Shown here piece by piece: positions 4,533-50,004 of a stretch of DNA of 64,000 nucleotides. The stretch comes from Eledone cirrhosa (lineage: Eukaryota). The translations under genes and the position numbers were made by a program. Each line of letters starts with the position of its first letter. Position 1 is the stretch's first letter. The notes under the pieces were generated by a model. The model was not told the origin of the DNA. It searched no databases and saw nothing but the letters and a program-made list of their open reading frames with translations. The DNA is taken from NCBI GenBank assembly GCA_964016885.1, contig OZ024742.1, positions 170,252,001-170,316,000 of the forward strand, written 5' to 3'.

Positions 4533-4954
4533 TTGGTCTGGTAACTATATCCTATTTATTACTGCATCTAATCTTGCTTTAGTTGGCTGAAGAATTTCTT
4601 TCAAATTAATTTTGTTATTGGATGGTTTTCCTCCAAAATCTTGTCAGTCCTGCAAGCATCAATTATTTTTTCTCTCTGAAGCAGCAATCTATACAGGCAG
4701 GGGAGAAGAAATATGTGAGTATCGTGGGAGTGTGAATGAGTGTGTGTGTGTGTGGGGGGGGATCTCATTTTACCTGAAATTCTGAATAATTTCAGCTGTA
4801 ATGGATAGCACCCAGCACTTGTAGTAATGATTTTCATTTATTTATTGTTCTTGATAAAAATGGAGGAATTAATAATGTTTTAAAGGTGTATGATAAACTA
4901 ACTCATAGAGAGTTATCTCATACATTCACTTTAAGATATAGCTTCATTTCAGGA

Positions 4955-5133
4955 TAGTGGTTGTGGGTTTGATTCATACAGTGGGTAGTGTATTGTTCTT
5001 GAGCAAAATGCTTCATTCCATGTTGCTTTTCGTGCTAGAACTGGGTCCCTTATCATTAAAATACCCAAGAAACCTGAGATGCAACTTCATAGGATGTCAG
5101 TTAAACTCACATAGATGTAAGCTGTAACAACAT
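4955..5133 (+). mobile_element. Truncated SINE with one unit of the ~110-bp tail
   Basis: ggtttgattc...gttcttgagcaaaa followed by ctgggtcccttatcattaaaatacccaagaaacctgagatgcaac. Confidence 0.6.
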
Positions 5134-5623
5134 GCACACAGACGACACACATACACACACCACACACACACACACATATACACACACCACACACACATAC
5201 ACCACACACACATACACCACACACTCATACACACCACACACACACACATACCACACACACCACACACACCACACACACCACACACACACACCACACACAC
5301 CACACACACACACCACACACACACCACACACACACCTACCACATACAACACCACATACACCACACACACATACACTACACACTATCACACACACATACCA
5401 CACACACACATACCACACATACCACACACACACACACATACCACACACATACTATACACACACCACATACAACACATACAACACTACATACAACACTACA
5501 TACCACACCACATACCACACACCACATACAACACACACACCACATACACCACACACACCACACACATACACACACCACACACACATACACCACACACTAT
5601 CACACACACATACCACACACATA

Positions 5624-5657
<34 letters not shown>

Positions 5658-5863
5658 CACGCACACACACACACACACATACCACACACACACACATACC
5701 ACACACATACCACACACACACCACATACACTACATACCACATACCACATACCACACACCACATACCACATACACACACACACCACATACACATACACACA
5801 CACACCACATATACACACACCACATACACACACACACACCACACACACACCACACACACACAC

Positions 5864-5894
<31 letters not shown>

Positions 5895-5899
5895 CACAT
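5133..5899. repeat. Compound CA-rich low-complexity array (CA/CACCA/CATA)
   Basis: About 770 bp almost devoid of G on the plus strand; explains the His/Thr and Cys/Val ORFs. Confidence 0.95.
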
Positions 5900-7099
5900 A
5901 ATGATTGGACTCAGGCCCCCAACCATTAAAGCCTGCATAGGTGTGAAATGTTTCTCTATATTCAAAAAAGTATTAATGTGGAATGTCACATTACAGCCTC
6001 TATATTTAGTGAAAGTTTCTTTTAAAAATAATTCCTTGTTCGTTCCCCTCTTGGAGTTTAACCAGTTATTACTGTTATTATTCCAATATGTTCTTTCAAG
6101 CAAATCTTATTCACAGTCTCGTTTAATTAACCAACCATCAAGTTCAGCTCATCTAACCTTGAAATTATGTTGTCCAAATTCTTGAATTCTGTTCTAACCA
6201 AAGTCTCCATATCATTCTGACTGTTCAACAATGTAGTCTTTTATCAATTAGAGTAGTTTAACCCTTTTGATACCAAACTTCATGAAACAACTCCACACAA
6301 AACTATTTGTTATAAAGTGTTTATATATATATTTAAAAGACTCTCTTCATAATTTTATGTAAGAACATTTATGTTCCAAGAATCAGTTTTATAAGAAACT
6401 GAGTTGTATTACTAAATCCTTTCCAATTATTAATTATTTTCAAAATTATTTAAAAAAAAATATAGGCAGTGTCTTTCATTAGAAATATAACTGTGTCAAC
6501 AGTAACATTCATCCTGTAATTTACATAAAGAAAATATTTTTGTTGTTTTAAAATGTCTAAATTTATCTAAGAAGCTTTGTTTTAAACACCAACTTAACAA
6601 TGAAAATGTTACCTATTTTACTAAATCCCTCCAAATTCTTTCTTTTTTTTTTTTTAAATTATTTAAAAATCTTAGCTTAATAAAGAGAAATTTAGTCAAA
6701 AGGTGGGAAGAATTTAGTAATATAACTACTTTCAAAATTATTTGAAAACATAGGCAGTGTTTTTCATTAGAAATATAGGAATAACAAGAATTAGGTGTGT
6801 GTGTGAGAGAGAGAGTTGTGTGTGTGTGCATATATGTATGTATGAATATATCTGCGTGTGTATAATAATATAATAATGAAATTATTGTGTAACGTGCTCA
6901 GGTGCACTACAACTCGTCAAAGGTGCATGTATAGTACATAGAATAATATACAAATGTCAGGGAAGTGAATAGTGTATGAGTCATGATATGTGTGTATGGA
7001 GGGGGAACATTAGGTGTAGTGTTGGCAAATCTCGGGAAGCATGGAGGCCTTAAAGGATGCAGTGTCTCGACAGCTAATAACTGATGCAGGTAGTTTGTT

Positions 7100-7924
7100 T
7101 CATGCTTCAGCAACTGTGAGCGTGAAAAAATATTTCCGAAAGTCATGGGAACTATGCTGTTTTCCGACTTTGTGGGCATGCCCACGTGTGTTAGACACAT
7201 GGAAATCAAAAAGGTACTTAGGGTTGTTGTTGGCAAGATGGTTAACAATTTTGTGGGTGTTTACCAAGTCAGTTGCCAGACGTCGGAGCTTCAATGTATC
7301 CATGCCCAGGGAAGCAAGGCGTTCAGAGTATGGTAGATGCCTGATGGAGGGTATTCGCTTGGTTGCACATCTCTGAACAGTTTCCAGGCGGTCAATGTTC
7401 TGAGCAAGATAGGGGTTCCAGACTGGTGATGCAAATTCTAAGTGTGGCCGCACCATAGCCATGTACAGCCTTAAATAGATAGCTGGAGAGCGGCTGACAA
7501 AAGTCTTGCTGAGTGATGCTAAGACACCCTCGGCCCTCTTGACAATTTTAGAAACGTGCTTCGTCCAACGCAAATCGCTGCTGACCGTAATGCCCAGGTC
7601 ACGTTCACAAGAAGACTTCTTGATATTAGTGCTGTGGAGGGAGTATGTGGATGCTGGGTTTTTACTCCCAAAATGCATGGTGGTGCACTTGTTCACAGCT
7701 AGCTTGAGTTGCCAGTCTGAGATCCATTGTTGCATTGTGTCCAGGTCAGACTGCAAGCAAGATCTATAGTGTTCAGGATCTGTCCTTTTTATCTGAAGGT
7801 ACAGCTTGTTGTCATCTGCATACTTTAGTACTGTGGCATTCTTTAAGTTGGCATCTATGTCATTAATATATGCCACAAACAAAAGGGGGCCAAGAACAGA
7901 TCCCTGTGGTACACCAGATAACAT
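7100..7924 (-). pseudogene. CR1-type reverse transcriptase fragment (longest open segment)
   Basis: GVPQGSVLGPLLF, YADD, DLGI and RPHLEF motifs; the upstream frame is broken. Confidence 0.9.
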
Positions 7925-28800: not shown

Positions 28801-29731
28801 TCTGGCTCTCTACGATCTGAGTTCAATCCTGCTGTGTGAAAATGGGTAGATGGAAACTGTTTTGAAACCTGTCAGATGTACTGTACAATTCAAATAACCA
28901 GCCTTGTCACACTGAATCTCCCTGAGAATTACGTTAAAGGTACACATGTTTGTAGAATGCTCAGCCACTTATATGTTAATTTCACAAGCAGACTGTTCCA
29001 TTCATTGTTGAAACTGATCAAACTCCATGACAGTTGTGTGGTTATATATGTCTGTCACAGTTTTGTTACATCTGTAGGAGAGCTTTGTAAGAAATTAACT
29101 GAAGCTTGCTGAAAGTATCTGATAAATATTCCTTTGAGATAGAATATATTTAGTAGTCTATAAATCAGAAATAGGTGAATGGCTATTAGTAAAGTGTGTA
29201 GGGGGAGTTTGGAGTGAAGTAGAAAACAAGGTAAGAAGTTAATGATTTGAGGGTATTTCTTGTCGTTTCTGTTTGAGCTGGTCTATTGAACAATAGTCGT
29301 TAATTGAATGAACCATCTGAATGCCATTCCTTGTTACAGTAATGTGGGAGTTACTGCCCTAATAGTTAGAAACTGATATATCTAGTCTCTATTTCACAGG
29401 TAATAGTTCCTATTTAAAAGATAATTATGTTGAAGAAGACTCCAGGGAGATTTTTGTTTGGTGTAGTGATTGCCTGTGTAGTAACCTTTGTTAGATAAAT
29501 AATAGAAAGTTGAATCTCTAAATTTACATTAAATATATTGATCAGTTTTAATTTTCTGAATGTACATATGTGTGTGTGTGTGTGTGTGGGTGGGTGTATA
29601 TATATGATGATTTCCTTTGAATGAAACACTTCTAGTCTTGTAGAAGCCATTTCTATATTAAATTTATTGTTTACACTCCACTAATGTATTTAGTACCTTA
29701 CTTACTGTGATTATCCCCCGATTGAACCCGG

Positions 29732-33365: not shown

Positions 33366-33434
<69 letters not shown>

Positions 33435-33533
33435 TGTCCTACACCATCTTATTTTTGTGAGCTGTACACAGCTTACAAGAACACAATGGTGTAGAACAGA
33501 ACAAAGGAAAGATACAAAATAACTACAAAAGTA

Positions 33534-33574
33534 GTCATTGAGGAGGTCACAGAATGTGATGAAAGAGTTTTGAC
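33534..33574 (+). ncRNA. Minimal hammerhead ribozyme motif (C3 mutated)
   Basis: gtca-TTGAGGA-g-gtcaca gaa tgtgat-GAAA-gagt-TT-tgac. Confidence 0.55.
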
Positions 33575-33615
33575 AATCAACAAAAACTAGACAACCATCT
33601 AGTTATTAAACTAAC

Positions 33616-33655
33616 CAACTGAGGAGGTCACAGAATATGACGTAAGAGTTTTGAC
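33616..33655 (+). ncRNA. Minimal hammerhead ribozyme motif (GAAA mutated to GTAA)
   Basis: CTGAGGA-g-gtcaca gaa tatgac-GTAA-gagt-TT-tgac. Confidence 0.45.
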
Positions 33656-33809
33656 AATCAACAACTAGACAACCATCTAGTTATTAAACTAACCAACTGG
33701 GAGTTTATAATAAATTGAAGTGAGATTTAACAGGTGTGTGTTTTTATTGACAGCATGACCCTCCCAAAGTATAACAATATATATATATATATATATATGC
33801 ATACACACA

Positions 33810-35850: not shown

Positions 35851-36083
35851 GGTTTAGCTGACATTCCACACCTGAAATATTTTTGTTTACTACCACTGTC
35901 TTCTTTCTGGTTACTCTATTATTGTAGCTGAATATTAGGCAACTAATTGGCTAGTTGGTTTTCTAAAGGTAGTGATATACATATCTATATTAGTCATGTC
36001 ACATAATCACTGAACTTGATCAGTTGAATACTTCTCTCATATACACTTGCATGCACTCATCTAACTATCTGAGTGTTCATAGC

Positions 36084-36301
36084 TTAACCCTTTAGCATTC
36101 ACATTACTCTATATATATTATTATATTTTCATGGTAAAGGCTTTACCTTGTACAATTATCTCACATAATATCGAATCTATGAGATTTTGGAAATATTTAT
36201 TTTGAGAACAATACCTTAACATCAGTTTGAGTGACCAGTTACAGCCAGTTTCAACAGAAAAAGGTAGAGAATTCTGGCCGGTTTGAACATTAAAGGGTTT
36301 A
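36084..36301. mobile_element. piggyBac-like MITE P1 (also 31167-31384 and a terminal fragment at 1-19)
   Basis: Same TIR and internal sequence as 35099-35327. Confidence 0.75.
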
Positions 36302-37267
36302 CCAAATTTTTCATTGTGAATGTTGTTCCAATCTCTCTGTCAATTAGCTCTCAATAATAACTATAGAATAATCTTTTAAAGTTAACCCTTTCATTACCAT
36401 ATTTTTAATGAAAGTAATCAAGAATTTGGAGACATTTAGTAATATAAGGTTCTTGCCATTAAGTTAGTATTTGGAAAATGACTTAAAGGTTCTTATCTAA
36501 AGTTATGATGGAAGGTTTCTAGATAAATATAAATACTAATTCCTTTATTACCATATTTCAAATGAAAGTCGGTATACATTTTTCAAAATCAAGAATTTGG
36601 AATGATTTAGTAATATAATTAATTTTCTCATTGGAACACAACTTAACAAATGTTTTTACATAAAATTATGATGGAAGTTCTTAGATAATTATGAACTCTT
36701 TAAAATAAACAGCAGTATCATAGAACCAGGGGTGATTTGAGGCGGTTTGGTATTAAAAGGGTTAAGTTATTTTGAAATATATGTTCTGCTACTTGTTTTG
36801 TTTCAGGTTTTGTCATTGTAAAAAGGTTAAAGACCTCTTTCGGTCATGAATGACAACAGGTTTTGCACCTAGAAAGTTCCCCTTTGAGTCACATGCCCGA
36901 GCAAAGTTGTTTATGGAAGACCAGCAGTCGCTTATGCATACTAGTCTCCCCTCTCCACCGATGTTGTCCAAGAGAAAGACAATGGCTGATACAGCTTGAC
37001 ATCAGTGATATCGCAACTCATTTCTGGAGCTGTGTGAACTGGAGCAATGTGAAATAAAATGTCTCACTCAAGGACACAGCACATTGCCCTCTCCGGGAAC
37101 TAAACTCAGTGTATTGCCAGTGTTGTCAGAGCATTGGACAAATACTTAATATTTCTTCCAGTTCTTTATGTTCTGAGTTCAAATTTCGCCAAGATCAACT
37201 TTGCCTTTCATCCTTCCAAGGTCAATAACATAAAGTACCAGTCAAACACTGGGGCTGGTGTGTTCAA

Positions 37268-37600
37268 CTTTCCTCCTCCTCAAGGATGAGGAGATAGAGT
37301 TCTCAAGTATGCCTCTCAGCAGGTCCTGTTGGAAACAAATATTTCCAACTGATCTCGCTGAATCCCCAAGTGAGACCAGCCGAGATCAAGGATGTTATCC
37401 AACCATCTTGCTTGGGGTCGACACCTGGGTCTCCTGCTAGTTGGTTTTGCTTGCAAAATCTGTCCACCGATTCTTTCCTGAGACATTCTAAACACAAGTC
37501 TTTAGCTTGGAGATTAGAGTGGCTCTATCTGGAGTGTCTCTTTTTTCTAGCCTATCCACTCTATTGAGTAACATTACTCCAAAGACCCCTCGGAGAAACC
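37268..37600 (-). mobile_element. RTE-like LINE 3' fragment
   Basis: Colinear homolog of 19228-19587. Confidence 0.6.
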
Positions 37601-38400
37601 CCATTTCGGTTGCTTGTATTTATGATCAACTTTCCCATCTCCTAAATTAGAAATAATATGAAACCGCGGAGTGGGGAGACCCAAGATGACTTGGGATGAG
37701 GTGATAAAAGCCGACCTTACCCAACTACACCTCTCAAAGTCAATGACACACGACCGTGACTTCTGGCGTCACGCAGTAATACAGGGTACCCGACCTCCCA
37801 TGGGTACATGCTGAAGCATATAAACAATATGCCCCCACTCCCCCCACCGCAAGGTGGTAGTGGAGGTGCCACGGCAAAAAAGCACCCAGCCCACACTGCA
37901 AAGTGGACGTGTAGGCGCCACGAAAAAGCACCCAGCACTCACTGTAAATGAGGTTGGTGTTAGGAAGGGCATCCAGCTGTAGAAATCAAGCCAGATCAGT
38001 TCCTGTATGAGCAAGGCATGGTCAGCTGACCAGACACTGCCCACAACAGGACAACCCGTCTAACCCATGCTAGCGTGGAAGAACGGACGTAAAACGGTGA
38101 TGATGATGAAAATAACTTTTTTTTTTTTTTAATTTTTACTATTTTAAAAATATTTTTCATAAGTTTGAAATAAATTATATTTACTTTTTAGATTTATACA
38201 AGTAGAACTAGTAGAATCACATTCTTCAATAGCTATTACTGGCTGACATTTCTGCTTTTCCAGTTCATTTAGACAAACTATAGCTTGAAGTAATGTTGTA
38301 CACTGTCAGGCCCAGCTGACATCACTGTGTCTCTTAATGATGCTAACATTAATATTGCATACAAAACTCACTTTGTATAATATATATATGTGTATGTGTA

Positions 38401-38444
<44 letters not shown>

Positions 38445-40033
38445 CATATATATACATACACTGTGGAGGAGTATTCTTTTCCTGTTGCTTCACATGATAC
38501 ACTTGACATATTTCTAATTAATCACACACATACACACAGGCTCTCTTTCATATAGTCACGTACATATGCAGACACACACACAACCACATACATATATGCT
38601 CATACACATACTGACTTCCCTGCACACACACCCACACATGTACACTTCCCTTCAAACAATCACACACACACACAAAGGCTCTTGTTGCTCAAGCTGATAT
38701 TTACATATATTTATGATTTATTACAAGAAATTTGAGCCATAATCTTATTACAATAATCTTCATATCTCAGAGTTGGCTTTTTAAGTCCTGTATTTTTTAA
38801 GAACTTTCTGTATCAACAGAAAAATGAAAGCATTTGTAGAATTTTTATTTCAATCTCAACATGGAAAGAAATCTGCTACATTTAAAGGATCTTCAACATG
38901 TTTTTACCCTCTTGTCATGCTGTTCTGTTTTTCTGTTAAAGATGGGAAACTTGGATTGAAAAAAAAAAAGCATTTCCAGCCAAAGATGGCACCGTTATGT
39001 GGTCAGTTGGTTACTAGAAATACTAGTAAAATCATGCACCTATGCAGTATAGCATGCTTATAAAAGGTTGGGATAGTCATGGCTGGAACACTTTTGGTTT
39101 TAAATCTGGACGACCAAACATATAATAGGATTGGATTGAGCTGAAATTAAACAGCATTTTAGAGTTTGTTGGGCAGAGTATTTCAGATTGTAGATCATTA
39201 TCAAATATTTACATCTCTTTTATGTTGACATGGGCTGGACGGTACTTTTTGAGGCATTGATTTATAGTGGAATACCCTTACTGATGCCAACTCAGTTGTT
39301 TGTTTCTTACATCCTGCTGGGATGCAGTGTACTTATTCTAAAACCTAGTCTACAGATGACTGCCCTATTTTCTTTAGTTCCTTTTGCTTCCTATGGAGCA
39401 TTGAGAGATGAGAGATCTTCATTTTTCATTGCATAGTTGAAAACCTTACCATTCTCTGAGGGAAAGAATATATCTGCCAGGTCTTCTGCAGATCTTGATG
39501 GGTCCTCTTTGCTTCCTACGCCCTTCATTTCTAGCTTCTATTTGAGGTCGTGGTGGTGCTGGACTCGCTGGTCTCTTGTTAACATGTGTGCCACATGGTC
39601 AAACATCTGCCATTATATGGTGATGGTATCATGTAGATTACTCAGTCGGATCCATTCCATTACCTCCATATTTATGGTGTGGTCACTCCAAGAAATCTTA
39701 TGTATAGTCCTAAGGTAATTTACATATAAGATATTCACAGTTGTGTAGATTCCATCTATAGATCTTTTTCCATGTCTCTCATGCATAAGTTGCTATTGGC
39801 TCAACGATTGATGTATACAGGTGGAGCTTTGTGTCTTGGGTAATGTATTTGGATTACACACACACAAGATTAAAGATGGTTTTCCGAAAGGGATAAGAAC
39901 AAAGCCACACTTAAATAAGGTACTCAATATGTTAGTAGAGAAGAAGCCTATTTACTTTATATAGAAATGACTTCTACAGGACTGTTTTTCATATGAAATC
40001 ATCAAGTATCTCACTGACATCCACAGACACAGG

Positions 40034-40080
<47 letters not shown>

Positions 40081-40198
40081 AGGTGAGTTTTATTGTAGAA
40101 CAATAAAGCAATGCAAATATCGGATAAGTAGCACTCAACAGTTTATAGGACTGGAGTAAAAATAATATAAAATCAAAAGATGGTTAAGAGTTCCATGT

Positions 40199-40267
40199 AT
40201 TTTATTATGCGCATTTCAAAAACAAATATCATCATGAGATGTTATTTGCGTTCTCATCAGATAAAAT
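40199..40267 (-). ncRNA. Type I hammerhead ribozyme (intact core)
   Basis: Minus strand: attttat-CTGATGA-gaacgcaaataacatc tcat gatgatatttgttttt-GAAA-tgcgca-TA-ataaaat. 7-bp stem I, long stem II, palindromic stem III. Confidence 0.85.
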
Positions 40268-41163
40268 AGGGAGACATGATATGAAGCTTAAAAAACACTT
40301 GTGAGCAGTGAAGTGTTAAATCAACATGAAAAATAAAATAAGATGGATATATAAGATTAGAAAAAAGGAAAGGAAGGGGGGAAGGAAAAGGTGAGGAAGA
40401 AAGAATATAGATAGAAGAAAAAAAAAATAATAAGGAAAGGATGATAGAGGAGGAGTATAAGAGAGGAGGAGAAAATGAGTGAGAGAGAGATAACCTTTAA
40501 TACTGAGAAACTCTGTCTCACAGAGAAAAATAATAAAAAAACCGTTGTAAGATAATACATAATTTAAAAATTAAGAAATTAAAAGTTAATGAGGTTTATG
40601 AATGGTGATGCTTATGATTAAAGAGAAAGGAATTAAGAATACTATTTATGTGCGAAAAGGCATTTATTAAAATGTATTATTCAAATAAAATATATTAAGA
40701 AGATAAGGTTAAATGAATTATGAACTTAGAGAAATTAATTAGGGTCCAAGTTTGTTTCTATATATTGTAATAGGAAAAAGTAAATAATAGATTTAATAGG
40801 AGCACGGAAGGAGAGAAGAAAGAAAAAATTCAAGGAAGAAAAAATATATAGCGTCAAAAAAATATGTTTACAAAATTTCTCTAATGGTAATATTAGTATA
40901 TATTAAAAATAAAAATGGGTATGGCCGAGAATATAAGGAAAATGCTATAGTGAGTTATAAGGTGAATTAAGAAGTAATTGAGAAGTAAAAGTTGCAGATT
41001 AAAGATTAGAAATTAAAAAAGAAGAAAATTAGGGGACCGCTAACGACATAGTATGAGTAATATTGTATAATATACTGAAATAAGGTAGAAAGATGGGTAT
41101 ATTTATAAAATATATAAAAGTGTTTCAGAAAAAAAGATTTTAAACTAATTAGGTAGTAAGATA

Positions 41164-41550
41164 TTAGCTGTATACTTTATGGAAAGTTCTATGGGATTTA
41201 TGCAAGCAGAGCGAAAATAAATCCGTACGTCTATTTATTATAGAATTAAAATTAGAGATAATGGTAAATTTCTCCGCTAGGCAGAGATTACATGTTCAAG
41301 ATAGGGAAGAATTAAGGTAAGGAGAGGCGTTGCAAACCTTCCTCCAAGAAATGTTGTAGTTAATATTTTTGTCCTTTAAGGACCATATGAGTTCTGAGAG
41401 TGCTGTGTTAGTTCTTTTAAGTTGGTATTTAAAAGAGGAATTGTGATTATAAAATCTTGCTTTAAAGTAAGTGGAAGTGGAACCAAAATAGGTAAAAGAA
41501 TTGGTACCAGTTATAACCTTACATTCATACACTAAATTTTTATCAAGCAA
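41164..41550 (-). pseudogene. PLE GIY-YIG endonuclease C-terminal domain with one in-frame TGA
   Basis: LVYECKV...TYFGST...FKARFYNHNSSF...TALSELIW. The frame continues past the TGA (41296-41298) as TCNLCLAEK...INRRTDLFSLCLHK to a TAA at 41164. Confidence 0.85.
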
Positions 41551-42205
41551 TTGACAGACTTGATTGGAATCTTTATTTTGAATTCTTTAAATCGGAAAAT
41601 TCCTCAACTTCGCGGTGGAATATATCGTGACGATGCCCTTTTTGCTGTCTTAAACTGTAACTTAGTTAACCTTAATATTATTAAGAATAATATACTTGAT
41701 CTATTTAAGCAACATAACCTAAAAATTGAATTTGAAAACAACGTCAAACTAGCTAACTTCCTGGATATATCCCTTAATCTTGACACCGGCCTATACTATC
41801 CTTACCATAAAGACAATGAGAATCTAAATTATGTTAATTTTAAATCTAACCACCCTATTAACGTTAAAAATGCTACAGTTAGTAATGTTGAAAAAAGAAT
41901 CTCAAATCTATCTTCTAATAAACTTATCTTTGACGCTAAAGCCAATTATTACAACAATGCGTTTTCCAGAGCCGGTTATCCTGACAAAATTAAATACAGT
42001 AAAGAAACCAATCATCGAGGAACTTATAGTAATATAGTTACTTATAAGCATTCCAATAACATAAAGAAAAGACCTAGATATAAAAATATGATTTGGTACA
42101 ACGCTCCTTTTTCTCTATTATTAATATTCCTAAACTATTTTTTAGGGCCTTAGATAAATGCTTCCCTCCTTCACATATTTATAGTAAGATCTTTAATAAG
42201 CAACT
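41551..42205 (+). pseudogene. PLE reverse transcriptase C-terminal half plus linker
   Basis: GIYRDD, NFLDISLNL, SNHP, RISNLSS, AGY, IWYNAPFS, then frameshifted LDKCFPPSHIYSKIFNK. Confidence 0.9.
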
Positions 42206-42888
42206 TTTTTTAATTTTTTATTTTTTTTATTTCTTATCTTTAATCTGCAACTTTTACTTCTCAATTACTTCTTAATTCATCTTATAACTCACTATAGCAT
42301 TTTCCTTATTCTCGGCCATACAAATCTTTATTTTTAATATATACTAATATTACCATTAGAGAAATTTTGTAAACATATTTTTTTGACGTTATATATTTTT
42401 TCTTTCTTCTCTCTTTCCGTGCTCCTATTAAATCTATTATTTACTTTTTCCTATTACAATATATAGAAACAAACTTAGACCCTAATTAATTCCTCTAAGT
42501 TCATAATTCATTCACCTTATCTTCATTCACCTTATCTTAATATATTTTATTTTAATAATACATTTTAATAAATGCCTTTTCGCACATCTTATTAAACCCT
42601 TCAATATATAAACCTTAAATAAATAGTATTCTTAATTCCTTTCTCTTTAATCATAAGCATCACCATTCATAAACCTCATTAACTTTTAATTTTTAAATTA
42701 TGTATTATCTTACAACGGTTTTTAAAAATATTTTTTCTTCTATCTATATTCTTTCTTCCTCACCTTTTCCTTCCCCCCTTCCTTTCCTTTTTTCCAATCT
42801 CATATATCCATCTTATTTTATTTTTCATATGTTGATTTAACACTTCACTGCTCGCAAGTGTTTTTTAAGCTTCATATCACGTTTCCCT

Positions 42889-42957
42889 ATTTTATCTGAT
42901 GAGAACGCAAATATCATCCCATGATGATATTTGTTTTTGAAATGCGCATAATAAAAT
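42889..42957 (+). ncRNA. Type I hammerhead ribozyme (intact core)
   Basis: attttat-CTGATGA-gaacgcaaatatcatc ccat gatgatatttgttttt-GAAA-tgcgca-TA-ataaaat; predicted cleavage after A42950. Confidence 0.88.
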
Positions 42958-42984
42958 GCATGGAACTCTTTTAACCATCTTTTG

Positions 42985-43023
<39 letters not shown>

Positions 43024-43171
43024 ATGCTTTGGGAGGGTCATGTTGCCAATAAGAAACACACGCACCAGTCGCTTTCACTCCAAATTATTGTAAATTAAAT
43101 TTATAAATTTAAGAATTTATAAATTTCCGATTGGTTGGTTGGTTCCATAACCGGACGGTTGTTCATATATT

Positions 43172-43214
43172 GTCAAAGTTCTTTCGTCACACATTCTGTG
43201 ACCTCTTCAGTGAC
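43172..43214 (-). ncRNA. Minimal type I hammerhead ribozyme motif (intact core)
   Basis: Minus strand: gtca-CTGAAGA-g-gtcaca gaatg tgtgac-GAAA-gaac-TT-tgac. Confidence 0.7.
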
Positions 43215-43282
43215 TGGGGATTCTTTTCTATGTTTCGAGCCTCTCCATTGTTCTGTCCTACGCCATCTTGTTTTTGTGACCC

Positions 43283-43323
43283 CATTGAAGAGGTCACAGA
43301 ATGTGTGACGAAAGAACTTTGTC
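43283..43323 (+). ncRNA. Hammerhead motif, mutated copy
   Basis: ca-TTGAAGA-g-gtcaca gaatg tgtgac-GAAA-gaac-TT-tg; C3 changed and stem I truncated. Confidence 0.5.
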
Positions 43324-43532
43324 AATATATGAACAACCGTCCGGTTATGGAACCAACCTATCAACCGGAAATTTATAAATTCTTAATTTTATAAATTTTA
43401 TTTATAATAATTTGGAGTGAAAGCGCTGGTGCGTGTGTTTCTTATTGGTAACATGACCCTCCCAAAGCATAACAATATCGGTTTCAACACACGTTTTCAG
43501 ATAAAGAATCTTGCTAAACAAATTCAGAAACG

Positions 43533-43609
<77 letters not shown>

Positions 43610-43610
<1 letters not shown>

Positions 43611-43790
43611 GATATTAACAAATGGAAACTATATTTATAAAACTATATTTATTTCATTATACATATTTCAAGTATAAATATAGTTTCCATTTGTTAATAT
43701 CGTATTTTTACTCCAAATATTTGTTGAGTGCTTTATATCAGTTATAAAAATATTTCCTTGTTGTATCCCAACAATTTAAATAGAACTTTT
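43610..43790. mobile_element. Short PLE terminus with a 30-bp perfect inverted repeat, between (TA)n tracts
   Basis: 43610-43639 pairs with 43673-43702. The loop holds the 3' half of a hammerhead (minus strand cttGAAAtatgtaTAatgaaat). The tail tttttactcca...gttgagtgc resembles 40131-40162. Confidence 0.65.
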
Positions 43791-44049
43791 ACATATATAT
43801 ATATATATATATTCGCATGCCAACATAAGAGCAAGAATGAAGTGTTCATTCTACTGACATGGCTATAAAATTGAGACTTATTTGCAAAATTGCAAACGAA
43901 TCGAATGCTATTATTAATATTCGAGGTTAACTTTGCCTTTCATCCTTACGGGGTCGATAAAATAAAGTACCAGTAATGTCCTGGATAATTGATGGCCTTG
44001 TGCCTAATGTAGAAACAATTATTAATATTCGAAAAGCTCAGATTACATT

Positions 44050-44083
<34 letters not shown>

Positions 44084-44793
44084 GTATGTTTTGTCTCCAA
44101 CATTCCGCTCACGAGTTTATAGTAGAAGACCCCCCCCCCCCAGGTGCAACACAACTGAATCCAGAAAGCACGTGGTTGCGAATCGAACTTCTAAACGTTC
44201 CTCATGCTCTGCATCTATATCCTATCATTCGCTAAACAAAACCTATCTTGAATGCTCTCTCTCACATCCTATCATTGTGTGTATATCTTTTACAAACTGA
44301 TTCCTTCTTCCCCCAATCGTAAGCAACCCTACCGTGATGCATACACAGACACTCACTCCCTGTCCCGTTTAATGCTGATTCAGTGGCTATCAAACATTTA
44401 AAAAACCTTTATTACTAGAAATTTCAGTGTAAAGAAATGCACCGTCACATTTCTGATGTCACCCAATTAAAGAAGTAACATATTTAACAAAATGTTATTA
44501 ATTCATCTTCTCCCACCCTCTAACTCGTAATTCTGAGATGTTCTTCCTTATTGAGACTGCTTTATATTCGACTCCTCTACAATGAAACTGTAAACATTTT
44601 TTTCTTTCATATATTCAAAATGAGTTCATTTCCTGGCCAGCCCAGCTGAACAATGAATGAATATATATATATATTCATTTTATTAACGCTAGATAGTGAG
44701 TCTAGCTACTCTAGAGTAACAAGATTTTATTAAGGGTAAATAGCCTTAATAAAATGAATATTTAAACTCTACTTCAGTATCGAGTACTCTTTT

Positions 44794-44837
<44 letters not shown>

Positions 44838-44848
44838 ACACACCACAC

Positions 44849-44879
<31 letters not shown>

Positions 44880-46259
44880 ATTTCAATCATATATTTCTTA
44901 TTGATACTCGTTACTTACACACACGACGAAATCCTGTAAAATACCCCCCATGAGACAGAAAGTAGAAAGTAAGTGCATCCGAGAGTGCGAGGTTCGTGTC
45001 TCCGTAGCGACTACTATACCCGTCCCTACAGATATGTTGCCCGGTTTTCTAAGCTATTATTTATAGTGTTTGTTTTAGCGCGTACGTGCGTGTGCAGACA
45101 TAACACATTCCCATAGACAAGTACCAAGATTTGTTACTGTCTCAGCGTAATAGTTATTTCCCCCCCCACTTCGGAACGTTTCCTTATAAACTGTTCTGTG
45201 TGAAAATAAATAAATAAATAAAAGAAACTACACATGATTTAGTCAATGTTTTAGATTATTTTGGCAAAGAACTATCTTCAATATTCAGTCTATTATTAGC
45301 ATGACAACCGTACCTATCCTGTCCTTATCTCACTTTCTCACCCGCTACATCCCGCAGATTTCTTCATTCAAAAGCCCCGTTGCTGCTCAATGCATACATA
45401 CTTCCACGGTGAAGAGTGAGGAATATGTCTGCCCCCTAAACTATTGCTTACATTTTATTTTCCTCACATAGCAGATAATATATACGTATATATATATATT
45501 TATTTATTTCTGTTCTTCTCTCAACCCTACCCTCTGCGTTCTGTCATATATATAAATACACAGACATTGATGCAAGTACATTATTTAGTAGTACACCCCT
45601 CCCCCTTCAGTGGGTTGGGATAACACAAATTTCGAGTTGTTTTTTTTAAAAGTTATACGTATATATTTCAAATGTCGGTACATCTGTTAAAAAGTTAGTC
45701 TAGCTACTTCAGTATTTTTCTGGCTATGAGTTTATGTGGTCAATAAAAGAAATCATTATCAACTTTGCCTTTCATCCTTCCGGAGTCGAAAAAAATAATG
45801 TACCAGTCAAATACTTTACTCTTCACCCACAAAAGTGGTGGTCTTGTGCCAAAATTAGAAACAATTATTAGAGCGTCGTTCGGCCCTCGTGGCCAATAAA
45901 GAAAGAATTATTAGAGCGTCGGACATGCTTTGCAACCTATAGTTACGGCCCTTTACATTCTGAGTTCAAATCCAGCCTACATCAACTTCATCCTTCCTGA
46001 GTCGATAAAATAAAGTACCAGTCGTGTACAGGAGTCGATATAATCAACTTTCCCCTCCCCAAATTGCTGGCCTTGTGCTAGTGTTAGAAAGAATTATTAT
46101 TTCTTTCATTTTTCCAGGGGTCAATAAATAAGGTACCAGCCAAATACTGGTTATATATTTAATCTACTTTCCCCGATTCCCCATAAATTGCTGGCCTTGT
46201 GCCTAAATTAAATACCATCATTATTTTCTTCTCCTTCCCCGCCTTCTATTCCTTTCCCT

Positions 46260-46790
46260 TTCGTTTGTTCCTTCTTCCCGCCGTCGCCGTTGTCAGCCTC
46301 ACCCCTACTTGTTGTGTGACCGTTCTCAGCGCGCATCTGCCATCATTAATGCCGCGCCGTTCCCCCCTCGCTCGCTGGAGTCGCAGCTGCGGCACTACAT
46401 ACAGCAGTGGTAGTAGTAGTAGTACTTACAACTAGAGACAGACACTGTAAACAACATTGTGTTGCTACTGACAGATAAGTGAGCACTTCCAACTAACACC
46501 ACGCCATCAGGCCGCTTATACTTGACACCACACAACAACCACGACGACCTGTGGAAGGAAGGAAGCCAGGACATATTCCCCCTTGCTTCTAAATCAGCCA
46601 TTTACCTTATATTTAAACTGAGCTGCTACCATGGCGAATATCCTCTCATCTGCTTATAGTATAGTTTGAACGTCCCGTTTGATTTTTTTTTAAACTCTCC
46701 AGTTGAAGGAATATTTACCTGGAAATATTACTTTGCTGTGACGTCTGGTTGCTTTACCCGTTGCATGTCATCATGGCTTGGTTCAAGAAG
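46260..46790 (+). promoter_or_regulatory. CpG-rich candidate promoter and first exon ending in ATG GCT TGG TTC AAG AAG|gtatgt
   Basis: Highest local CpG/GC density in apparently unique sequence (46260-46400); Kozak-like atcATGG at 46773; strong donor AAG|GTATGT at 46790/46791. No downstream exon identified. Confidence 0.35.
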
Positions 46791-49719
46791 GTATGTATCT
46801 ATGTATACACCACATTCATCCATGGTCAGTGGGTTCCATTCTCCGGACATATATACCACAAATAATTCTGCATTTCATCTGATACCACACACACACACAC
46901 ACACACACACAGATGTATGTACAAATACATGAATGTATTTTGCACATACACACATAGATGTACAAATATATTAACGTATTTTGCACACAGTTACAGCAAC
47001 ATACACGCATAAATGAATGTGTAAATACAGACACATACACAGCAACACAATACACACGTGAGTGTATGAATATTTTAATGTATTTTGTACACGCTCACAC
47101 ATACACATAGATATATGAATGTATTTTTCCATATACACAAATGACTATAAATATATTAGTGTAAATGTGAATATATTTTACTCACACACAAATGACTATA
47201 AATATATTTTCTTTCTAAGTACGTTTATTTAGTAAAATGGTGCTGTAAATATATCGATGAGTGAGTCGTTGGTAGATATCTTGTTTTTGATAATTAAAGT
47301 CGCTATTTTTTTAATATAAAGCATGTAGTAAGCTAAAGGCTTTGTAAGTTAGTAAGACATTGGTCGTAGTAGCTGATGTGTTTTATTAATTCCCTTTTTG
47401 CCGTGAATGAGGAGGAAATATGAAACATTTGAAATACTCATGACTATTGTCAGTTAGTCAGTAGTCGGCTTTTATATAAATATATATATATATAAAGTGT
47501 GTTTAGTTCGAGATTAAAAAAGACAAAACACTGTTACAAATCTTATTAGTTTCACGCTTGTAAAAGGAAATACACACACATACAAATGAAGTGACTAAGC
47601 TGATCCTTCGAAGTCACTGCTACTATTCTACTTATTAAATGCTTGAATGTTCTAAGCACTAGTGTATTTTAAACACTCATTCATTCATATAGATATGTAT
47701 TGTAACCTTATGTTCTTAGATATATGTAGTGTGTATATACACACACATATATACATACACACACAAGTATGTCTATATGTTATGCGTCTTAAAAATTTTA
47801 TTTCGATATCTTGGATGTGGATTTCCGGTCTGTTTCCATACATGCCAGCTGTATATCTTTGTCATTTCATATTTTACTCACTGCACTTAACTACTACCAC
47901 TAAATATCGCTGAATGTACTCTCAAGATGTCAAATCTTGTATACAATCTACATGCATATACATACATATATGCACATGCGTACATATATACACATACGTA
48001 TACACGTGCATGCATATACATACTTATTACTTATATACATACATATCCATATGTACATACGTACACACATATCCTGCTCTCATCTTCATGTGGCCAAAGC
48101 AGCAATAGAATGGCGTGTTTTATTTGAAGCAGTTTTGCAATGCTTAGCTTTCTCTCTTTTGGTGGCTTCTAGAAATTGACTAACATATACATTATTATTA
48201 AAGTACTATTAACCTACTTCCATTATGTATATCTTACATCCCTACCATACAGCCAACATATCATTGTCGGAAAATTAATGGACGTGTAATGGAAACACTG
48301 GAATTCTCCTCTCTCATCTTGTCACGGTATTCCCGACAGTTCTTTGGTATAATTTCGTCCACATTTTCAAGAGTGGCTGCCATTCTTTTAAATATTTTAA
48401 TACCTTAAAAGCAAAATCTTGGTCTAATCTCCAGTGACGTAACTTGCTTCTCTTCTAGGTGCTTCTTCCACTACAATGGCAGTCAGTCTCTCTTTCCCTG
48501 TGTCCTTTATCTATTAGAGTGTGTTATATATCTAGCATGACATCTTTACTAACTGGATTTTTAGTAAATATGAAAGGGGTGAATGTTTGATAGCTGCAGT
48601 TGAACCTAAAACAGTCACCTGTGTGTTGCATTCAGTGTGCATGAAGCTAGCAACATCCACAACATTCACCTTTCTCTCTCTCTCTCTCTCTCACTATTAG
48701 ACATGGCAACTGCTCGCAGAAATATTTATTACTACTGCAGTTGTCATTCTGACTTACCAGTCTGCCTTGCATTTGGCAAGAATTACAGTTGCTCACACTC
48801 AGTCATAATTACCCATTTATAATTACGTTTATTATTACTATTATTATCATCCTATGGGATTTTTAGAGTCTCTTTGTTCCGCCGCTTCATCCCCATCCTT
48901 TTCTATATATCTTGTTCCAGATCTTTTGTTTTTGCGCTCCTGTCATGCAGAGAAAGATTTCATCTCGTATTAAAATGTCCCACTACACTAAGCATCACAC
49001 AAACACTACCGGCTGGAATGTTTCAAATGGAAGAATCTAATACTATATTAACCACTAATACACTACAGTACATATATATATATGTGTGTGTATATATATA
49101 TATATAGGTAATTCCTCGTTATAATGTATAGTAACTAACCCGCCTCCCACTACCTATTCATTTTTTCCTAGGAATTAACGAGAGTAGAGCCTCTACATGG
49201 TCGTTAGACCTGTTAGAAATAACAGCAAAATCTACTTTAAATCATACATTCTCCCTCTCTACACACAAATGTATTGAATAATGCAATCCTACACACTGTC
49301 TGAAAAAAGACTGGATGGTCATGGCCGAAACGCATCCGATTATAGGTCTTCTCAATCAGTAGTGCCTACATAGGGAAGGAACAACCACTCGTTCATTTTG
49401 CTTATCAGTGTGGGCCGATATATTATTGATTTTGTTAATCACCCCACTAGAATAAGGATTGATCAATGTAACCGATTACTCATTTCTACAATCATAGGAA
49501 ATTATTCGTTTTTATTCAATAAGCCACATCTTTATTTTATTTTGTAAACCGGGGTATATTCGCGCGTACGTGATTAAGCTTTGTTTTAACGTGTGTGACT
49601 CCTAGCATGTGGTTATTCTCGCGTGTATATAATTATAATTGTGTGTGCGCGTGTGTATATATATGTATTCATCTGTACACACACACACCTCGCTCGCTCT
49701 CTCTCTGCAGATGTTATAT

Positions 49720-49917
49720 TTAATTTAAAAAATGTCATAACTGATATAAAGCACTCAACAGGAGGCTCCAACCGTTAAGGTTGTCTTTTTTTCCGGGTAT
49801 GTCAATATTTATTTATAAAACAAATCTGTATTTTATCTGATGAAAGCGCACCATAATATGCCTTGGCCCTTGAAGTATATGTATAATAAAATAAATATAG
49901 TTTCCATTTATTAATAT

Positions 49918-49920
<3 letters not shown>
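49720..49920 (+). mobile_element. Short non-coding PLE-derived unit (inverted tail plus hammerhead) next to (TA)n
   Basis: ataactgatataaagcactcaaca is the reverse complement of 43722-43745; aatatagtttccattt.ttaatat matches 43677-43700. Confidence 0.65.
49829..49893 (+). ncRNA. Type I hammerhead ribozyme (GAAA>GAAG variant)
   Basis: tattttat-CTGATGA-aagcgcacca...tggccctt-GAAG-tatatgta-TA-ataaaata. Perfect 8-bp stem I, imperfect stem II. Confidence 0.7.
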
Positions 49921-49921
<1 letters not shown>

Positions 49922-49948
<27 letters not shown>

Positions 49949-50004
49949 AAGCTTGTATATGTCCCGATATATAGATATATATATATATAAGCTTGTATAT
50001 GTCC

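Follow-up and report, generated by a model that had tools for sequence, protein, structure and literature searches.

We analysed a stretch of 64,000 nucleotides (nt) from Eledone cirrhosa (assembly GCA_964016885.1, contig OZ024742.1, positions 170,252,001 to 170,316,000 of the forward strand; hereafter the window) and found that the locus between its positions 39856 and 43812 is a row of separate, dead insertions from hammerhead-bearing families of Penelope-like elements (PLEs), with the units lying side by side rather than nested. The four units, here called F0 to F3 from left to right, belong to four different families, are kept apart by four TA tracts in a repeat scan of the window, and have no extended sequence in common in pairwise self-comparison. 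We consider it highly probable that, within this row of four dead insertions, F1 to F3 are mirror-image, 5'-truncated 3' ends of PLEs, likely produced by cutting and priming on both strands of (TA)n. The locus as such is largely ordinary and commonplace in this genome, a string of dead stubs of a known kind.

The original prediction, made from the letters of the window, had described four units parted by four TA tracts, and the repeat scan and self-comparison show that these are real; that the inserts are of PLE type and carry hammerheads is likewise borne out, with parents encoding a reverse transcriptase (RT) and a GIY-YIG endonuclease for F1 and F2. Its picture of a nest strung along one (TA)n microsatellite is not borne out: F0 has its 3' end within a short (TG)n, and the units follow one another without nesting. 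The features of the locus, in positions of the whole stretch, are the following (UTR, untranslated region; aa, amino acids):

39856..40034, minus strand: F0, single-armed 3' stub of a hammerhead-bearing family (best other genome copies 76-90% identical over part of the query, younger sister family F0s 67-72%)
40035..40078: (TA)22 tract (repeat scan)
40079..41553, minus strand: F1 left arm, 3' part of a Hydra-clade PLE with endonuclease C-terminus, 3' UTR, hammerhead and tail (maps to copies L058-L060)
40079-40164, minus strand: F1 left-arm tail of 86 nt, the same as in the rest of the family
40198..40268, minus strand: intact minimal type I hammerhead motif of the F1 left arm, with palindromic stem III (descriptor and family cores)
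41547..42988, plus strand: F1 right arm, with RT motif C and thumb, 3' UTR, hammerhead and tail-less end (aa 353-573 of the intact protein)
42888..42958, plus strand: intact minimal type I hammerhead motif of the F1 right arm, with palindromic stem III (descriptor and family cores)
42989..43019: (TA)15 tract common to the tail-less 3' ends of F1 and F2 (repeat scan, self-comparison)
43020..43282, minus strand: F2 left arm, tail-less 3' UTR end of a second PLE family, beginning 69 nt above its own hammerhead (copy comparison)
43210-43176, minus strand: intact hammerhead core of the F2 left arm (descriptor, family cores)
43283..43534, plus strand: F2 right arm, beginning at the hammerhead edge, with a broken motif at 43285 (copy comparison)
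43479-43534, plus strand: F2 right-arm tail of 56 nt (copy comparison)
43535..43609: (TA)33 tract (43535-43601) followed by (CA)4 (repeat scan)
43609..43672, minus strand: F3 left arm, tail-less stub with the hammerhead 3' half only (copy comparison)
43673..43792, plus strand: F3 right arm, tail-bearing stub of a second Hydra-type family, without hammerhead (123/123 bases as in locus L124; parent coding frame in locus L332)
43793..43812: (TA)10 tract (from the letters)

The 2.9-kb F1 unit and the 455-bp F2 hairpin emerged as long inverted repeats from both a repeat search and self-comparison, the latter giving only 94-95% identity between the inverted arms in the window, and no retrozyme-like array of head-to-tail monomers was found in 39850-43810 by repeat scan or self-comparison.

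Parent families of F1, F2 and F3

F1 is a twin-inverted, broken copy of a Hydra-clade PLE, dead and rearranged, and not the autonomous driver for which the 2.9-kb element had been taken. A 205-aa frame within it (41536-42153) gave 40,506 first-look candidates in the genome, and many of the 150 that were scored lie within long open frames; five of 12 fetched loci (L051-L055) carry frames of 815-821 aa, that is, open reading frames (ORFs) of ~800 aa. On the intact protein, the left arm covers aa 683-821; the right arm has an internal deletion at 42202/42214 and has lost the endonuclease. The arms are joined across a 7-nt overlap that contains the palindrome CAATTG, and both bear a 7-nt deletion and two substitutions that are absent, by eye, from six other copies, which indicates that they stem from one event and one source.

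By its motifs and by a by-eye match to the alignment in Craig et al. (2021; PMC8557442), the F1 family belongs to the Hydra clade. Its intact proteins carry RWT, DKT, YRDD, a CxCX5C linker and a C-terminal endonuclease with CxxC and CxH motifs, and the following traits of the clade are found: 1) a single ORF with an RT followed by a C-terminal GIY-YIG-type endonuclease, the region aligning by profile with canonical PLEs; 2) DKT in place of DKG together with an RWK-type motif, DKT and RWT being present in L052 and RWK in the homologue P0122; 3) the CxCX5C linker, no CCHH, and CxxC and CxH around a conserved E and N, when our translations are set beside PMC8557442; and 4) a hammerhead in the pseudo-long terminal repeat (pLTR) and insertion into (TA)n, with 10 of 13 F1 arms abutting TA in a random sample of one hundred 10-kb stretches (1 Mb) taken from eight large contigs of the 3.0-Gb genome. 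Neither the ORF in the window nor the intact protein of the Hydra family had a Pfam match. The 3' ends are fixed, all 13 arms of the random sample stopping at +105 or +187-189 (offsets for family members are counted from the first C of the hammerhead core). One locus, L052, is a full pLTR-ORF-pLTR copy, in which an upstream hammerhead and a tail precede the ORF and, after a 3' UTR of 1.2 kb, the downstream hammerhead ends tail-less in (TA)n, the two hammerheads being separated by 3,864 nt; full-length copies of the family without an inversion normally have this tail-less 3' end as well. We also found a young Hydra subfamily (L051-L055, L061) with many near-identical, intact ORFs of ~800 aa, which by its sequences has probably been active recently and whose ORFs are suited to biochemistry.

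F2 is the 5'-truncated, twin-inverted 3' end of another protein-coding PLE family. Three observations together lead to this: the continuity of the F2 leader and UTR with an ORF carrying RYVDD, a CX4CxxC linker and GIY-YIG (25,887 candidates for the ORF), scattered 5' starts, and fixed 3' sites. Among 30 loci selected by the tail only, 28 were scored and two dropped as the tail pattern was not found in them; 26 of the 28 end in an AT repeat, and their 5' starts are scattered from -1428 to +117, with none at the predicted cleavage base, +35 (the nearest is at +32). An inverted partner arm is present in 17 of these 28 loci, and it is sometimes the tailed and sometimes the tail-less arm that is longer. 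Of the 26 F2 arms in the random sample, 8 start at least 284 nt above the hammerhead, inside the ORF, and 21 stop at +192 or +249; one locus of this set has a duplicated block.

The hairpin as a whole aligns end to end at dozens of loci (4179 first-look candidates, 40 scored), and two simpler descriptions of it were considered and dropped: a fixed hairpin family, since junctions differ from copy to copy, and a fixed 330-nt monomer, since the leader continues upstream into the ORF. By eye, the hairpin centre varies among 27 of 30 copies and the tail may sit on either side, so that F2, with its variable junction, arm lengths and tail side, lacks the fixed terminal inverted repeats and fixed interior of a miniature inverted-repeat transposable element (MITE) or fold-back DNA element. 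Separately, the F2 3' UTR (43213-43282, minus strand) contains the motif AAGATGGCG, which we take to be a YY1-type promoter word, and 11 of 28 F2 arms start at -30 to -104, around this motif.

The best named relatives of one encoded protein are Octopus vulgaris proteins at 64-78% identity. The group around the F2 parent is broad (L318, L319 and proteins P0001-P0116). Like Neptune and Nematis elements, the F2 parent has a C-terminal GIY-YIG with a CX2-5CxxC linker and CCHH; in place of DKG, L318 and its aligned relatives have DKS, the group has LRKDHK rather than PKxHK, and ~55 profile columns between RT motifs A and B are unmatched in canonical PLEs, where Neptune and Nematis have no RT-fingers insertion. 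All 17 sequences aligned, from the F2 parent and 16 relatives, conserve these ~55 additional residues. Profile comparisons put the group nearer to canonical PLEs than to Hydra and, judged by profiles and motifs, the F2 parent does not appear to fall cleanly into any named clade. Literature searches returned no description of the group, and a motif search of the supplement to Craig et al. gave no match, a weak result because the sequence runs in the file are incomplete; the group may already be catalogued. If this group, with its insertion in the fingers, is a lineage apart, it would inform the relationship between PLEs and telomerase. A further PLE clade in the genome is represented by a fragment of the canonical DKG/PKVHK type (L330:64-909).

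F3, with 342 first-look candidates in the genome, is by sequence comparison the 5'-truncated, twin-inverted 3' end of a third protein-coding PLE family, as seen in locus L332, where a Hydra-type ORF (42-67% to the F1 protein) leads into a long UTR and the full hammerhead; the copy ends in (TA)n without a tail, and an inverted stub with a tail is also present. The short families are linked to ORF-bearing partners through the run of the F2 UTR into its RT/GIY-YIG ORF and through L332 for F3.

Hammerhead motifs and TA tracts in the window and the genome

Core positions are given in the usual hammerhead numbering, with the UH rule for the triplet. As a minimal type I hammerhead we counted CUGANGA and GAAA cores with a UH triplet, stems I and II and a short stem III. 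A strict type I descriptor run over the 64-kb window returned two matches, both in F1 (42896 on the plus and 40260 on the minus strand), and the minimal features are present in both of these and, with variants, in the left arm of F2. The latter (minus strand, 43210) has a complete core in which A9 is followed by one additional base; its stem I is 4 bp long, its stem III is not palindromic and its triplet is UU, all of them traits of its family: 124/155 family cores are intact, with the triplet UU in 135/155 and UA in 16/155. In the right arm of F2 (plus strand, 43285) the motif is broken, C3 being altered, the 5' strand of stem I removed by the junction and its 3' strand mutated; the F0 motif (minus strand, 40005, spanning 40005-39970) is decayed, and F3 retains the GAAA (3') half and nothing more. 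An antisense CTGAAAA..GAAA look-alike in the F2 tail (minus strand, 43500) was rejected, as it has an A at G8 in 113/113 copies. Where four clear and two or three partial hammerheads had been described, the tally is three intact, one broken, two partial and one spurious. Rfam, run on 36000-48000, gave no hammerhead family match, just microsatellite-driven miRNA matches under the gathering score. Minimum-energy folds of the isolated motifs recovered stems I and II, not the full active fold, either as monomer or as dimer, and were not used as evidence. The window motifs are predicted self-cleaving RNAs.

That the host keeps the cluster as a functional ribozyme or double-stranded RNA cassette would fit the three intact cores and the near-perfect F2 hairpin (fold energy -304.5 kcal/mol, z -34), and strikes us as very improbable: intact cores are normal for such young families (70/80, 124/155 and 27/37 in three of them), two cores in the window are already broken, and similar ends occur at ~95 per Mb. 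In a read-through RNA the F2 arms would pair fully and prevent the hammerheads from folding.

The random 1 Mb holds 40 hammerheads, against 0, 0, 0, 1 and 1 in five local shuffles; if 40 per Mb holds throughout, the genome carries on the order of 100,000 such motifs. A (TA)6+ tract lies within 300 nt downstream of 25 of the 40 (24 of 30 without one tandem array), compared with 18.5% of 9540 random positions and 28.4% of 433 bare cores, in agreement with the proposed enrichment of hammerheads at (TA)n. The four families together contribute 95 arm ends to the sample, 71 of the 94 scored abut TA, and the TA tracts beside arm ends are longer than others (median 31 vs 12 nt). This confirms (TA)n targeting by hammerhead-bearing PLEs genome-wide, and rows of different families are common in the genome.

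Elsewhere in the window, diverged relatives of F0, F2 and F3 stand beside microsatellites (29579-29704, 33434-33798 and 49737-49989). Another short dispersed repeat, unrelated to the hammerhead families, occurs on both sides of the cluster (43929-43990, 37197-37273 and 45761-46231). The tandem array mentioned above, on the minus strand at ~4751-7542 of locus L292 (G000:C3:66558875-66568874), comprises ten 310-bp units with an intact hammerhead in each, and is retrozyme-like, unlike the units in the window.

Proposed formation of the inverted units and probable growth of the row

The families have two fixed 3' ends, one with a tail of 56-90 nt and one tail-less, and the hammerhead is located 50-260 nt from the element 3' end. 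In the in vitro work of Frangieh et al. (2024; PMC11167929), a purified Poseidon protein cleaves AT-rich DNA on both strands and extends each of them, reverse transcription begins at two internal sites between which the tail lies, and hammerhead cleavage is unnecessary for insertion. On this model, the element enzyme would cut (TA)n on both strands and both cut ends would prime reverse transcription on element RNA, with one cDNA starting at each of the two sites, tailed and tail-less; the two short cDNAs would stop early and be joined in head-to-head orientation where a few bases match. Given its closeness to the 3' end, a hammerhead would be carried along as a passenger in most stubs, often twice. 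Every insertion would leave (TA)n at both of its ends, where the next element could strike, so that rows may grow. Here, growth probably ran from left (F0, oldest) to right (F3, youngest), as is suggested by an identity to the closest copies that increases from F0 to F3.

The main rival for the hairpin joint is the fold-back of a single cDNA, in which one primed cDNA folds at a short match and is copied back to the 3' end without a second priming on RNA. We regard this as a possibility to be taken seriously, if clearly the less probable course, since the private variants common to the F1 arms, the overlap of the F1 joint with a palindrome and the starts of paired F2 arms, often 10-30 nt apart or less, are what it would leave, as are F0-type joints that by eye are near-symmetric at a short natural inverted repeat beside the core. 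Yet the longer arm can be tailed or tail-less, the tail-less end behaves as an RT start site, being the normal 3' end of un-inverted full-length copies, and a PLE protein extended both strands of its target in vitro (PMC11167929). The near-symmetric F0-type joints lie at the hammerhead 5' edge (L209, L248, L275, L289, L291; L320, L323), which is a candidate fold-back hot spot.

That inversions and cluster formed after insertion, by rearrangement at TA tracts, or result from faulty assembly, we think hardly credible. TA-rich palindromes are difficult to assemble, and the private deletions present in both F1 arms could be read this way, but the asymmetry between tail and no tail repeats at fixed positions over dozens of loci, and arms diverged to 94-95% are not what a sequencing fold-back gives.

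Another scenario, along the lines of the original prediction, has separate, short non-coding elements bounded by hammerheads (retrozyme- or MITE-like) that amplify independently, are mobilised by an autonomous PLE and share its TA target, with F0, F2 and F3 as such satellites. Its appeal lies in the thousands of short copies (4179 F2, 342 F3 and 1101 F0 first-look candidates), in the recurrence of the hairpin form at dozens of loci, in F0-type 5' ends that cluster at the hammerhead edge, in the fixed start of F0s and in the genuine 310-bp tandem hammerhead array in the genome. For F2 and F3 it is refuted, as both run on into ORF-bearing parents and are truncated ends of autonomous PLE families with scattered 5' junctions, the very outcome that the prediction had named as speaking against it. 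Junctions vary among copies, the window holds no tandem monomers, F2 5' ends do not lie at the cleavage site, and the F0s tail leads to a Hydra ORF, the same ORF family contributing its C-terminus as an inverted arm. As an account of the three short units it is improbable, and F0 alone leaves room for a non-autonomous family.

The sister family of F0, F0s (L338-L358), is ~600 nt long and non-coding, with internal repeats of ~190 nt. At one locus (L356/L358) the F0s hammerhead and tail lead straight into the start of a Hydra-type ORF, and in L347 the C-terminus of that ORF family forms the inverted arm (short overlap, one mismatch). Of the 30 nt above the F0 core (40005-40034, minus strand), the first 12 agree with the fixed F0s start in 11 positions, though F0s has ~410 nt between start and core, unlike the 30 nt of F0; the match may be due to chance or mark an internally deleted form.

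Several observations weigh against origin of the row by both-strand priming and random truncation. The in vitro mechanism is known for a Poseidon element, not for the clades found here, and paired F2 arms often have their 5' starts near one another, which also fits the fold-back of one cDNA. Element ends lie on both sides of 7 of 1319 tracts against 1.12 expected, which speaks for re-targeting, but this approximately six-fold excess is based on those 7 tracts, some of them same-family neighbours, and there is no such excess in tracts of at least 40 nt (1 seen, 1.01 expected). The age order compares identities from queries of unequal length, and the link of F3 to an ORF is based on a single locus (L332). 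F0 is single-armed; 13 of 14 random F0-type arms begin at -5 to +61, at the 5' edge of the hammerhead (flanks by eye); 7 of 20 selected F0s loci share a fixed start, which follows a compound (TG/TA)n and lies 389-590 nt above the hammerhead; and at 3 of 3 loci the 3' UTR of the F0s-linked ORF family enters a long microsatellite and F0s is not reached within 2 kb, as was likewise the case for L359. The pile-up at the F0 edge, the fixed F0s start and the UTR that does not reach F0s together mean that random truncation explains F0 poorly. By sequence, F0 is an old stub; it may be the distal end of an autonomous element that was cut at a microsatellite within it, or it may be a derivative that is not autonomous.

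A bolder composite, which we entertain tentatively and think rather unlikely as a whole, is that the hairpin parent is an undescribed C-terminal-endonuclease PLE lineage with a telomerase-like RT-fingers insertion, widespread in marine invertebrates, and F0 a true short, non-coding parasite of Hydra elements with its 5' end set by the hammerhead edge, the two together building growing rows on TA tracts of their own making.

Comparison with known systems

The non-long terminal repeat (non-LTR) retrozymes, as described by Cervera and de la Pena (2020; PMC7229834) and Li et al. (2026; 10.64898/2026.07.22.740005), are likewise short, non-coding, type I hammerhead repeats related to PLE pLTRs. They are, however, head-to-tail monomers (150-450 bp) with a hammerhead in each, whereas the window units are head-to-head, variable stubs of ORF-bearing parents; the fixed-length non-autonomous unit that marks a retrozyme is not found for F2 or F3. 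Repeat finders and readers will take such stubs for MITEs or ribozyme satellites, against which we caution.

With the Poseidon element PAc of Anolis (Frangieh et al. 2024), the families share a tail that lies between two internal RT start sites, AT-rich targets and a hammerhead near the pLTR-ORF junction. Cutting and extension of both target strands was observed there by assay, whereas here it is proposed from sequence; tails here are 56-90 nt long compared with 30-40, targets are long (TA)n, and the clades are others. The genome offers a good natural data set on the 5' joining of PLEs and on any role of the hammerhead in transposition. From Neptune and Nematis, as Craig et al. (2021) describe them, the F2 parent differs by DKS rather than DKG, LRKDHK rather than PKxHK and ~55 conserved extra RT residues; canonical PLEs with a C-terminal endonuclease lack, according to the same paper, a fingers insertion between motifs A and B.

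Among the closest known systems is also the Hydra clade. Literature searches found no paper on such rows in cephalopods, but the arrangement as such, which had been put forward as a candidate for an undescribed system, is published for PLEs and for the Hydra clade in octopus: in PMC8557442, inverted 5'-truncated copies, one-sided tails, hammerheads and a preference for (TA)n are PLE traits, and a table includes Hydra-1_Obim, a Hydra family in Octopus with (TA)n preference. The F1 family agrees with this clade, by eye, in DKT, RW(K/T/R), YRDD, the CxCX5C linker, the endonuclease CxxC/CxH, the hammerhead and (TA)n, and the parents of F3 and F0s are included by similarity. Relative to the same source, the families here differ from Hydra-1_Obim and have another hammerhead, the F1 family exceeds the usual <3 kb (3,864 nt between the L052 hammerheads), and there are at least three families, one of them with many near-identical intact ORFs. 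The locus is thus a clear natural example, from a genome with very many such copies, of published PLE behaviour: tails on one side only, stubs in inverted pairs and insertion at TA.

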